A stretch of 48,074 nt of DNA from assembly GCA_000934665.2 (NCBI GenBank), contig KZ538778.1, positions 1-48,074 on the forward strand. The letters are read 5' to 3'. Made by a program: the position numbers and the translations under genes. Numbering within the stretch: position 1 is the first letter of the stretch; each line of letters opens with the position of its first letter. Below the pieces are notes generated by a model. It was not told where the DNA came from and ran no database searches. It saw only the letters and a program-made list of their open reading frames with translations. Below are positions 29,301-35,300 of the stretch, in pieces. Source of the stretch: Catajapyx aquilonaris. Lineage: Eukaryota.

Positions 29301-32300
29301 TGCAACCTAACGCAACATAATTATTTGAGTAGCTACCATAGTAGACTACATGTTCTTGGTTCATAGCACGCGGACTGCAAGTCGAAAATAGGGTCCTACT
29401 ACGCATTCGACTCGTAATGCAACTTGAATTGAGAACTTTTTAAAAATGTCCAAACCGACCACAATATACTGATCTCTGTTCAAAGAAGAAAACGATCTGA
29501 AAGTACTTTAATATTGCTAGAAGACACTGACTAGAAATCTGCGGGAGTAACAAAATATCTCATTTCATTGACTCAGTCACTTGATAAGACCACGGTGTAT
29601 GGGTGGGGGACTCACGACTGTGTTCAAATTTAGCATGTTGACCCCAAAGGATACGAGGCCAAAGTCTGGAGCTGCCTAGATAACTAATGGCAGGAAGCTG
29701 GGTAAGAAGACCTCGGCACCATCACTTGGCTGAAAAAAATGTCATGTTATAATTACATCTTGAACACAAGCAGCACTCCTGGCGACATGAGGCGCGTTTG
29801 CCAGCACATGGCAGGGAAATTAATCATTTTTGCCCTCCTACCCTGGCATGCTTGCGTCATGATGAGGGGGGTCCAATCAGAGAGTGGCAGGCAAGCGGGG
29901 ATGTAAGGGGGCAGGGAGGCAAGACTTTGAGGACCTTTTGGTCACTGTCGATCGAGACGTTGGTCGGAGGGGCAGCAGTGGCAGCCACAGCGGCTTGCTA
30001 TGGGTGATATCATGGGGGATCCTTATGCTCGCAAACAGGCACTGGAAGAGAAGGCCAGGAAGGCTCAGGAGGCCTTCGAGAAGGAGGAGAAGCTCCGCAA
30101 GGAGGCTGAGGAGAAGAATGTCAAGCTGGCCGCTGAGAAGGCTGAACTGATGCACACCCTGGAGTCCTCCAAGGGATCCATGGGTGACTTCCAGGAGCGT
30201 CTCAACAAGCTCCAGCAGCAGAAGGCTGACCTCGAGTCACAACTGGCTGTAAGTATACTAGTACTTCACATTCTACATTTTTGGGACGCTTTTCCTAACC
30301 GGGCTTAAGATGAGTCAGGACCACTTTGGGAACGTTTACGATTCTTTCCCCTCAGCCTGTCCTCTATATATCTCCATGACGTAAACGTTGGGCAAATTTA
30401 GTCAAACGGCCCGTCGCCGCAGCAGGCTATAAAGCATTTTTTTCTGGAAGGAATATTTTGATAGGAAGCATTTGCGCGGGGTCGTGTTTTCTGTCGCGTT
30501 GACAGGTCTACTTCGCGTCCCTAACTCGTTGGCACCCAAAAATAGATCAGAGTTGTAAAGAGCCCTATGTTGATGAACGAGAGATGACACATTGCGACCT
30601 CTTGCACTCGGGCCAAACTTTTGCAGGTCACAGGTGTGGCGGAAAAAGACGGGTGGTGGGCTAAAAAGTCGGATTTTATTTCCGGTCTCCTAAGTGGGAA
30701 GGGGGGGGGGGGAGAGAGAGAGAAAATTCCAGTATATCCTTATTTTTGGACGCAATCCAAGGAAGATAAAAAGCGGCTCTACGGTGTTGTGAGCGTGTAA
30801 CATATCATCCTCACCTCATATTCCGGGGTCGAGCGTGGGTCGAAATGCCAGCCTGCGTGCCAACGAACCCCGCCTTTTTCCAGAAAAGGACGGATTCAAA
30901 GTCTGACTCAGGCCCGGATAATTATGATGCCTGCAGCTGCACTATGCAGACATGAAGAATGAATATATTCTGGATGGGTTGTTAGCTGGCACGCACACTT
31001 GGAACTGTGCACTGGGTGCAGGCTTCATCGCAGGATATGACTAGGCCGTTATCCGGGTGGGCAGGGTTTCATCCTGGACTCGAGGCAACCTAGGCGCCTG
31101 CCTTGCGCTGCAGTGTGGTCTGAAACTACGGCGCTTACTACTTTATAGGATGCACAAGAACGACTGTCTTCTGAGGAGGAGGCCCGCAACCAACTCTTCC
31201 AGGGCAAGAAGAAGGTTGACCAGGAGATCGGCGGGATGAAGAAGGATATTGAGGACTTGGAACTTGGACTGCAGAAGGTGAGATCGAGCAAATAGCGTAC
31301 TAGAGACACATGATTCATCTACTTCTTGTTTAGTCTGAGCAAGACAAGGCCACCAAGGACCACCAGATCCGCAACCTCAACGACGAGATCGCTCACCAGG
31401 ATGAGCTCATCAACAAGCTCAACAAGGAGAAGAAGCACATGCAGGAAGTCAACCAGAAGACCGCTGAGGACCTGCAGGTAGGTACTATCATAACATCCAC
31501 CTGAGCGCAAAATCTGATCGTCTTGTTTTGTAGGCCGCCGAGGATAAGGTGAACCACCTGAACAAGGTAAAGGCCAAGCTGGAACAGACCCTGGATGAAC
31601 TGGAAGACTCCCTGGAACGCGAGAAGAAGCTGCGTGGCGACGTTGAGAAGACCAAGAGGAAGGTGGAAGGTGACCTGAAGCTGACCCAGGAGGCCGTCGC
31701 AGATCTGGAACGCAACAAGAAGGAACTGGAACAGACCATCCAACGCAAGGACAAGGAAATCTCTTCTCTGACCGCCAAGCTGGAAGACGAGCAGTCTCTT
31801 GTGGCCAAACTGCAGAAGCAGATCAAGGAACTGCAGGTAGGTGTCTCTAATTTCCCTGGCAGCAAAACGCAGCACATGTGCAAGGGGTAGGTTGTGGGGG
31901 GTGGAGGGTGGAAACTGCGCACCACCTTCCGGGTGGGTGCGACATTCTCAAAATATACACTTGAGCTCCACACGGAAGCAATTGGGTATCATCGACGCTG
32001 GCACTGGATTCACACCTCGGTGTTATCTTGCCAAGAAACTCCCCCCGAGCCTAAATAGGCACGCAGGACGGTTTGATCCTGGTGGCGTGGGCAGTTAGGA
32101 GTTAGGTGGTGGGTTGACTGCCAGTGATCCGTGAGAGGAGCAATGGAAGGGGTCGACCAGGGACAACCCAAAAGGCTTGTGCCTCAAGTGGTGGTGGAAG
32201 TGTCAGACACATCTAACGAAAATGGTGCTCCGGTGGAAGTCACCCTTCCCATACCAAGGCCTCGTCCTCGGCCTAAGCTAGCCCCACAACCAGAGATCAT

Positions 32301-35300
32301 CGAGCCCGCACCAGAGCCGAAAGCACCCCTACCTGCCCCAAAACCGGAACCTGCACCAGTCCCTTCTATTCCCTTGCCTATACGGAAGCCGGCCAAGCCG
32401 GTGTCTTACACTAGCCCATTTGGATACCACCGTCCTGCTCCCTACTACCCCCCTGCTCCAGGACTTAGCGTCGGAAGCAGAGGAGTGGTTCGCTTGGATC
32501 GAGAGCTGTACCATTACAAGCCAGAGTCACGATGTTCTCTTCTAGAAGTAATGATTTAGAAATTGCCTAACTTCTTATAGCTGACGCTTTATTTCGCTCC
32601 GAGCAAGAGGTAGGCTAACACCTATGCCGTAGGCGTATATTATTTTGCACATTTTGTTCCGTTTGCTGCTGGGTTCAATTTGAGCCATTTTTTTTGTTAC
32701 AATGGGGCATGAATTTATTGATCATTCTCCTCTTCTAGGCCCGCATCGAAGAACTGGAAGAAGAGCTGGAGGCTGAGAGGCAGGCCCGTGCAAAGGTGAG
32801 TACTCAAAAGTCCGCCATTATAAATTTTACCTATATCAGCTTCTTGACACTCCTTATAAGGCTAGAGCCAAGTCTTAAAATATACAGTTCTGATGCAAAA
32901 GTATCACAACCGGGCTCCTCTCTCGAGGAAAAGTCACGGTAGTGAGCCTAAAGAGTGTGGGACCGATCTGCACCAGATGCTTATTTTAGCTGACTGGCTC
33001 ACATTAAAACTTGGCACCGATCGCACAGCAATGAAATATGCTCTAATGCAACACATATGGCTTCGCCAGGCTGAGAAGCAACGTGCTGATTTGGCCCGCG
33101 AACTGGAAGAACTTGGCGAGCGTCTGGAAGAAGCCGGAGGTGCCACTGCTGCCCAGATCGAACTGAACAAGAAACGCGAAGCTGAACTGTCCAAACTGCG
33201 TCGTGACCTCGAGGAAGCCAACATCCAGCATGAGGGTTCCCTGGCCAACCTGCGCAAGAAGCACAACGATGCCGTGGCTGAGATGGGCGAACAGATCGAC
33301 CAGCTGAATAAGATGAAGGCCAAGTGAGTTTCTAAAAGTCGCCTTATTGCAGTGAACAGATAACTGTAAATGGCTTTTGCTTTAGGGCTGAGAAGGACAG
33401 GTCCTCCATGGCCAGCGAACTCAACGACCTGCGCGCTGCCACTGACCACCTCAGCAACGAGAAGGTAAAGTTTGGACTTTTTTATATAGGTGAACGTATG
33501 AGATAGACTACTAACATTATGTTTTCTTCAGGCTGCCGCCGAAAAGATGAGCAAGCAGCTGCAACAGCAGCTCAACGACGTCCAGGGCAAACTGGACGAG
33601 GCCAACCGCACCCTCAACGACTTCGACTCCGCCAAGAAGAAGCTGGCCATCGAGAACAGCGACCTGCTGCGCCAGCTGGAGGAGGCAGAATCCCAGATCA
33701 GCCAGCTCAACAAGCTCAAGATCTCCCTGACCACCCAACTGGAGGACACCAAGCGTCTGGCCGACGACGAGGCTAGGGTACGCACAACTTGGACTTGAGT
33801 GTACTAAAGGGCTACAGGAAATATACAACCTTGTGTGTTCGTCTACAGGAGCGTGCCACTCTCCTGGGCAAGTTCCGCAATGTGGAGCACGACCTGGACA
33901 GCATGAGGGAGCAGCTGGAGGAGGAAGCCGAATCCAAGGCTGACCTGCAACGCCAACTCTCCAAGGCCAACACTGAAGCCCAAATGTGGCGCAGCAAGTA
34001 CGAGTCCGAGGGCGTCGCCAAGTGCGAAGAGCTCGAGGAAGCCAAGTGAGTAGCCGATTTATCAAGTACTCACTAGCTTAGCAATGCCGGAGCTCTTTCA
34101 AATTCCTCTTGTTCTCCAGGCGTAAGCTCCAGGTCCGTCTTGCCGAGGCTGAGGAGGCCATCGAGTCCCTCAACCAGCGGGTGGTTGTTCTGGAGAAGAC
34201 CAAGCAGCGCCTGGCCACCGAACTGGAAGACATGCAAATCGAGGTTGAGCGTGCCCAGACTCTGGCCAACCAGATGGAGAAGAAGCAGAAGTACTTCGAC
34301 AAGATCGTGAGCGAGTGGAAGATGAAGGTTGATGACCTGTCTGCTGAGCTGGATGCTTCCCAGAAGGAATGCCGCAACTACTCCACAGAACTCTTCCGCC
34401 TCAAGGCTGCCTATGAGGAAGGCCAGGAGCAACTGGAGGGCGTACGCCGCGAGAACAAGAACCTTGCCGGTAAGTGTCTCCTACATGCGGTATGGAAAGA
34501 AAGAAAGAGTGAGTAAGTAACACATTGCTTGCAGATGAAATCAAGGACCTGATGGACCAGATTGGCGAGGGTGGCCGCAACATCCACGAGATCGAGAAGG
34601 CCAGGAAGAGGCTGGAGGCCGAGAAGGAGGAACTGCAGGCTGCACTGGAGGAGGCTGAGGCTGCCCTGGAACAGGAGGAGAACAAGGTTCTGCGCAGCCA
34701 GCTGGAGCTGTCTCAGGTGCGCCAGGAAATCGACCGCCGCATCCAGGAGAAGGAGGAGGAATTCGAGAACACCAGGCAAGTCACGGAAACTAAAAATAAT
34801 CCAGCGGAAAAATGACAATACGATGAAATTTCAGGAAGAACCACCAGCGTGCCATCGACTCCATGCAGGCTAGCCTGGAGGCTGAGGCCAAGGGCAGAGC
34901 CGAGGCCCTGCGCATGAAGAAGAAGTTGGAGGCTGACATCAACGAGCTCGAAATCGCTCTGGACCATGCCAACAAGGCTAATGCCGAGGCCCAGAAGAGC
35001 ATCAAGCGCTACCAGCAACAGCTGAAGGAACTGCAGGCCGCTCTGGAAGAGGAGCAGCGTGCACGAGACGACATCCGCGAGCAGCTTGGTATCTCTGAAA
35101 GGCGCGCCAACGCCCTGCAGAACGAACTTGAGGAGAGCCGCACCATCCTGGAACAGGCCGATCGTGCTAGGCGCCAGGCCGAAACCGAGCTGACCGATGC
35201 CCACGAGCAACTCAACGACATCGCCGCCCAGAACGCCTCTCTCAGTACCGCCAAGAGGAAGCTGGAAGGCGAGCTGCAGACCTTGCATGTGAGTATCTGT

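Follow-up and report, generated by a model that had tools for sequence, protein, structure and literature searches.

The stretch of DNA analyzed here, 48,074 nt from Catajapyx aquilonaris (contig KZ538778.1; "the window" below), carries on its forward strand a muscle myosin heavy chain gene (Mhc) of the arthropod single-gene type, located at 14109–36052 by tblastn with a 1961-aa beetle myosin heavy chain (MHC; P0077). One intron in the rod-coding part of this gene is 902 nt long and hosts an open reading frame (ORF) for 135 Pro-rich residues. On balance, and with modest confidence, we read this ORF as a real, lineage-restricted alternative first coding exon of Mhc, of the type that gives rise to the headless protein catchin (or myorod) in molluscs; its expression and splicing are what we infer. 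That the ORF is, or recently was, a coding exon is likely, while its splicing today in the manner proposed is the weaker step.

A Pro-rich open reading frame in a rod intron of Mhc

The head-coding part of the gene contains duplicated, mutually exclusive exon sets, which start at 14810/15023, 17327/17620, 19310/20016/21076, 22262/23123, and 26496/27204/27737/28030 (tblastn, P0077). The proteins closest to one rod exon are beetle MHCs with 88–90% identity, and the matches listed (at least 120) are all 1947–1970 aa long. Given that the best matches are beetle proteins at just 88–90% identity, the species and its close kin must be absent from the protein collection. Contigs from one sequencing run (X1; kind unrecorded, contigs only, word share 0.49) are spliced and thus RNA-derived, and they confirm 15 listed rod and tail introns, including the one that hosts the ORF (31836^32739). 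The coordinates of the features discussed below are collected in Table 1.

The original prediction described a 135-codon Pro-rich ORF in a 902-nt rod intron, with a phase-0 donor (GAA|GTAATG) that fits the next exon, and both parts of this description stand. Specifically, the intron spans 31837–32738, the ORF runs from an ATG at 32143 to 32547, and the boundary at 32547/32548 is in phase 0. The upstream rod exon also ends in phase 0, so that the candidate exon and the acceptor at 32739 share the same phase. The frame stays open over 32128–32556, i.e. between an upstream stop (TGA, 32125–32127) and a downstream stop (TAG, 32557–32559), and contains a single Met at 32143. The encoded 135 residues include 31 Pro, 9 Ser, and 3 Thr, with a pI of 9.1. 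On the 1961-aa beetle MHC the junction corresponds to residue ~1114, and the rod and tail that follow it comprise 837 aa when exon 36249–36320 is used, or 859 aa when splicing skips to 37013 (in silico). Conditional on the splice, the predicted fusion products would therefore measure 972 aa (135 + 837) or 994 aa (135 + 859), which agrees with the lengths first proposed. A search for another copy of the 19-aa hinge exon that follows the intron found none.

The end of the candidate exon resembles that of molluscan catchins

The unique exons of six mollusc catchins, as printed by Kollmar and Hatje 2014 (PMC3912159, supplement 3, Fig S3), all end ...PGLK-x-(L/M)LE, with LLE in 5 of the 6 and MLE in the sixth. 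In all six, an ATG-bearing extra first exon lies within an Mhc rod intron, immediately before a rod exon that starts in the same way as the one downstream of our ORF. The ORF itself ends ...SRCSLLE, its last three residues being LLE as in catchin, and the junction residue is identical. The claim that the ORF joins the rod where molluscan catchin or myorod does thus holds to the residue against these six sequences. The sizes are also similar: for catchin (Yamada et al. 2000, cited in PMC3912159 and PMC12040844), excerpts of the literature give 830 aa of shared tail and 156 aa of unique sequence; the ORF has 135 aa and, provided that it is spliced as predicted, would be followed in silico by 837 or 859 aa.

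When the sequences are lined up by eye from the end of the exon and one indel of a single residue is allowed, the ORF agrees with 11 of the 22 columns that are shared by 5 or more of the 6 catchins. A hand calculation from the composition of the ORF, which is not a computed alignment, gives 2.1 matches expected and a probability of ~5e-4 after allowing for indel placement, or ~0.02–0.03 without LLE. Among the best 120 of 6728 matches to P0077 residues 1114–1961, a search aimed at shorter proteins, none has LLE before the junction motif and all are ordinary MHC fragments.

The resemblance is not complete. The ORF is rich in Pro (31/135) and has 12 Ser and Thr residues, whereas the printed catchin N-termini are Ser/Thr-rich and contain long runs of these residues. 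The host is an arthropod, while catchin/myorod is described, in the excerpts of PMC4410989 and PMC12040844, as exclusive to molluscan catch muscle. Myorod is known from an abundant muscle protein (as abundant as myosin in catch muscle, according to the excerpt of PMC12040844), whereas the present case is known from genomic sequence.

Coding signal in the open reading frame

We find that the base composition of the ORF varies with codon position (chi-square P = 7e-4), and that its CC dinucleotides are distributed 31/11/12 among the three phases. Dinucleotide shuffling of the ORF (60,000 shuffles) produced 654 fully open frames, only 2 of which reached the same chi-square and none the same CC phase excess. 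The N-terminal third of the ORF, which has few prolines, is periodic by itself (P = 0.012), compared with P = 0.30 for the last third. Other non-coding frames of at least 100 codons in the window mostly show periodicity far below that of the ORF, with one (8454–8771) equal to it.

At a lag of 6 nt, identity reaches 0.49 for codon position 1 and 0.51 for position 2 but 0.25 for position 3, which indicates that the P-x-P-x pattern is kept at the level of the protein and not of the DNA. All four Pro codons are used (CCT/CCC/CCA/CCG = 10/7/9/5), and TRF detects no tandem repeat in the ORF. Judged from the sequence, this combination is consistent with selection on residues with free synonymous sites, and unlike a decayed DNA repeat.

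The ATG at 32143, the only Met codon of the frame, stands 5 codons past the upstream stop, and the preceding 267 nt are free of ATG in every frame; gaps of at least 265 nt between ATGs account for 10 of 908 in the window. The final LLE is also uncommon, as it precedes 47 of 48,404 GT sites in the window and 80 further loci (described below), and shuffling of residues gives 4e-4. The periodicity, the leader free of ATG, and the terminal LLE each have a probability of ~0.001–0.01, and none of them was used in the original choice of this ORF.

Codon usage, splice donor, RNA, and homology searches

Several results weigh against a functional exon. About ten tests were run in all, and the three strongest were chosen post hoc. 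The length of the ORF is unremarkable, as 4.2% of 4000 dinucleotide shuffles of the intron contain a same-strand open frame of 143 codons or more. Measured against the rod exons, which themselves score 0.72, the codon adaptation of the ORF is 0.36 in frame vs 0.34 and 0.30 out of frame. The GC content at third codon positions (GC3) is 0.47, i.e. that of the intron background, compared with 0.78 in the rod; this value is no obstacle to coding, given a GC3 of 0.46–0.55 in rarely used alternative head exons of this gene.

Donor strength was scored with a matrix derived from the gene's own 16 RNA-supported donors, which themselves range from 5.4 to 12.0 bits (2.9–11.5 bits in a leave-one-out analysis). 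With 1.54 bits, the proposed GTAATG donor falls below all 16 and ranks 38th among 174 intronic GT sites, and a better GT (6.5 bits, 32610) is found 62 nt downstream, past the stop. We infer that the donor hardly separates the possible readings, a chance weak in-phase GT near the end of the frame being about as likely as a real donor this weak. In X1, the only joint across the intron is 31836^32739; the joint 32547^32739 is unseen in the contigs of this one run, which by itself is not decisive. Part of the ORF is covered by X1 contigs, with a mean word depth of 2.45 in the bin 32112–32412 vs 410 for the spliced contig, contig depth being a poor measure. The bins 32413–32713, 29102–30004, and 30306–30907 are without cover, which is not evidence either way. 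An estimate based on these empty bins places the start of the low-depth piece near 32108–32154 and is given no weight here. The 902-nt intron contains no match to the MEF2-type consensus YTAWWWWTAR, of which 12 are present elsewhere in the window.

Homology searches returned no relative of the ORF. No Pfam family was found in it, a word-indexed search of longer proteins left 0 of 1257 candidates, and phmmer against 1.84 billion representatives gave one match and no true homologue. That single match, a repetitive 153-aa protein (P0001) that matches ORF residues 82–116 three times, was judged compositional, and the best ESM Atlas score (0.77, a bacterial family) is meaningless for this ORF. Likewise, a metagenome scan with the ORF produced 597 pattern matches with no relative among them, and Rfam reported nothing at E up to 1 over 28500–37500. 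Since the species and its close kin are missing from the protein collection, these negative searches carry little information on close relatives.

The upstream exon, used as the query of a metagenome scan, recovered 80 loci, and none is closely related to the window, with nucleotide identity in one exon reaching 88% at most. Of these, 73 are mRNA or intronless at this place, 70 with a 57-nt gap that corresponds to the hinge exon and 3 with odd gaps or no downstream match. The remaining 7 are genomic arthropod loci, and all 7 have an intron at exactly this place, of 66, 77, 84, 107, 113, 130, and 484 nt. The original prediction had proposed looking for the ORF in the orthologous intron of relatives; in these seven, although none is close kin, the intron is short and has stops in all frames, with no long open frame, and tblastn of the ORF against the 80 loci gives nothing below E = 0.019. 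The position of the intron is therefore old, but a real exon here would not be a general feature of arthropods.

Two points concern the likeness to catchin. Thr141 of the myorod unique domain is a phosphorylatable smMLCK site (excerpt of PMC4410989), and at the corresponding column, taken by count on Fig S3 as the T of ...RDTSDL..., the ORF has D or R by eye. In addition, MHC itself (...KELQ) shares the Leu that precedes the junction by two residues, so part of the match could reflect continuity of the coiled coil and not descent.

Alternative explanations

One alternative is that the frame stays open by chance, within a C-rich part of a long intron, and that the ORF is neither an exon nor translated, its likeness to catchin being coincidental. 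Its unexceptional length fits this explanation, as do the further non-coding frames of 100–190 codons in the window, the unremarkable rank of the donor, the lack of a codon bias, of a homologue, and of the 32547^32739 joint, and the absence of the ORF from all seven other arthropod introns. What chance would not readily produce is a periodicity and a CC phase excess reached by 2 and 0 of 654 open shuffles, third codon positions that are random while Pro positions are kept, an ATG-free leader of a length shared by 10 of 908 gaps, and an LLE exon end with a frequency of ~0.001 among GT sites. We consider a chance ORF unlikely, even when allowing for the choice of the best three among about ten tests.

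The same coding-type statistics fit equally well a sequence that codes, or formerly coded, and is used otherwise, be it as a decaying relic of a catchin-type exon, a stand-alone product of 138 aa that ends at the TAG at 32557, or an unproductive transcript spliced from the GT at 32610. The weak donor with a stronger GT past the stop, third positions at background composition, and the low X1 word depth over the ORF all agree with such uses, but the 135-codon frame is intact and closes just three codons after the in-phase GT, and the catchin-like LLE is meaningful only when joined to ARIEEL. A stand-alone product also meets two further difficulties: neither AATAAA nor ATTAAA was seen between the stop and the acceptor when read by eye, and a same-strand gene nested in a 902-nt intron of a highly transcribed gene is unusual. 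Taken together, these other uses appear quite unlikely to us. It is very improbable that the extra ~800 nt of the intron represent an inserted mobile element or a captured gene fragment, of which the ORF would be a remnant. The length of the intron (902 nt vs 66–484 nt in the seven other loci) and a long terminal repeat (LTR) retroelement remnant elsewhere in the window would agree with an insertion; against it, the region is single-copy within the window with no dispersed repeats, flanking repeats are limited to a single imperfect inverted pair of 17 nt, the searches of Pfam and of proteins found no match of any kind, and both the setting of the start codon and the LLE end would be left unexplained.

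Proposed product and comparison with other muscle proteins

Under our preferred reading of a catchin-type first exon, which builds on the directly observed anatomy, coding-type statistics, catchin-identical junction residue, and partial RNA-derived cover of the ORF, a promoter within the 902-nt rod intron would start a transcript on which scanning ribosomes would reach the ATG at 32143 as the first ATG. The exon would be spliced from GAA|GTAATG (32547/32548) to the constitutive acceptor at 32739, and the product would be a headless myosin of 972 or 994 aa, in which a 135-aa Pro-rich and probably disordered segment replaces the head and is followed by the distal S2/hinge, light meromyosin, and the tailpiece. 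Through the shared rod, this protein could dimerize and co-assemble with full-length myosin in thick filaments, where its non-motor N-terminus would be displayed at the filament surface, by analogy with mollusc catchin/myorod. The basic Pro-rich stretch PRPRPRPK might tether actin.

A headless product of an arthropod Mhc is already known in Drosophila. According to Standiford et al. 1997, as cited in the excerpt of PMC3912159, Drosophila MRP has an internal start and a short, species-variable unique N-terminus, and in these respects it resembles the protein proposed here. MRP differs in that its rod is complete, starting with the exon that directly follows the light-chain-binding region (excerpt of PMC3912159). 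In the window, the MRP-type exon starts at 30039 and the candidate junction at 32739 lies 262 codons downstream, away from the MRP-type start position, so that the distinction originally drawn from the whole-rod Drosophila MRP is upheld.

Separately, the frame upstream of exon 30039–30248 is open for 36 codons before the acceptor (29931–30038) and includes Met codons; this extension is a possible MRP-type start, at the position of the Drosophila MRP 5′ extension as described in the excerpted text of PMC3912159.

Closer in its starting position is Mhc8 of Lottia gigantea, a tail-only myosin that starts at the same place and has a short N-terminus of its own ending ...ALE before ARVEEL, and which differs in being a separate gene without a long unique exon (PMC3912159, as excerpted). 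Pro/Ala-rich extensions of thin-filament proteins in insect flight muscle (PMC4657346, as excerpted) offer a further parallel as Pro-rich, non-globular extensions on arthropod sarcomere proteins; these are carried by tropomyosin and troponin, not by myosin, and are likened here by description only.

Whether the likeness to catchin reflects common descent is a further step. It is possible, though rather doubtful, that the ORF and the catchin exon of molluscs are true orthologues, in which case a catchin-type headless myosin with its first exon in this very Mhc intron would have been present in the arthropod–mollusc ancestor, kept in at least one arthropod lineage, and lost with intron shrinkage in many others.

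Other features of the window

Table 1. Features of the rod intron of Mhc, its candidate first exon, and the flanking exons, in window coordinates.
Feature	Position	Strand	Evidence and remarks
Constitutive rod exon upstream of the intron	31534–31836	+	Ends ...QKQIKELQ, phase 0; X1 spliced contig; 93% identity to P0077 residues 1011–1116 (tblastn)
ORF-hosting rod intron, 902 nt	31837–32738	+	GTAGGT...TCTAG (GT..AG); spliced X1 contig joining 31836^32739
ATG-free stretch, putative internal promoter and 5′ leader	31879–32142	+	Successive ATGs at 31876 and 32143
Candidate alternative first coding exon, 135 codons, Pro-rich, ending ...CSLLE	32143–32547	+	Open frame, codon periodicity, catchin comparison
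Proposed phase-0 splice donor GAA|GTAATG, weak	32548–32553	+	1.54 bits
TAG stop, three codons past the donor	32557–32559	+	Unspliced product would be 138 aa
Stronger GT (GAG|GTAGGC, 6.5 bits), past the stop	32610–32615	+	Possible competing donor; no fusion protein from it
19-codon hinge exon, ARIEEL start	32739–32795	+	X1 spliced contig; acceptor is the proposed recipient of the candidate exon
Nine further constitutive rod exons	33070–36052	+	822 codons counting 32739–32795
Alternative tail exons	36249–37400	+	36249–36320, and from 37013; X1

Within the Mhc gene, GC3 of the mutually exclusive head exons (14810–28149) ranges from 0.46 to 0.75 within sets, and this spread may mirror how frequently each copy is used. 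The longest ATG-free gap of the window (812 nt, 13291–14103) is located directly before the main Mhc start, which reads ACCATGG at 14103. The sequence YTAWWWWTAR, a MEF2-type consensus, occurs 12 times in the window vs 4.6 expected, a number that none of 100 shuffles reaches, and the matches include a pair at 16962 and 16979 (spanning 16962–16988) in a 5′ intron. In the rod, 34776–34834 is an apparent GC-AG intron (donor CAG|GCAAGT) and the sole cut that preserves a frame matching beetle MHC; its joint is not among the X1 joints listed. At the 3′ end, an unspliced X1 contig (36291–37042; 752 nt, depth 16.2) crosses the intron between the alternative tail exons, next to the joints 36052^36249 and 36320^37013, and points to retention of this intron or to use of an alternative 3′ end.

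Past the gene, a 471-codon open frame in 46488–48073 weakly matches Retrotrans_gag (E = 0.0021, which does not pass the curated cut-off) and is followed by a frame with a weak match to a retroviral protease (E = 0.0015); this region is probably an LTR retroelement that runs past the window end. Long trinucleotide runs at 11302–11620, 39861–40000, ~26390, and ~45280 translate as homopolymers of N, H, or I, and two short N runs (48 N in total) mark assembly gaps.

Implications for headless myosins

Our literature searches found no arthropod case of catchin/myorod: in the excerpts seen by these searches, papers either deal with molluscs or merely cite the name. Kollmar and Hatje 2014 cautioned that MRP-like isoforms are unpredictable without mRNA (PMC3912159, as excerpted), and an arthropod version at this junction would answer that caution, as the present gene offers one exact junction to search for in RNA. 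This animal may make a type of headless myosin so far known only from molluscs. If so, the dilution or decoration of thick filaments by headless rod proteins would be a way of tuning muscle that is both old and recurrent, not a mollusc oddity, and the origin of catchin would be open to comparative-genomic testing.

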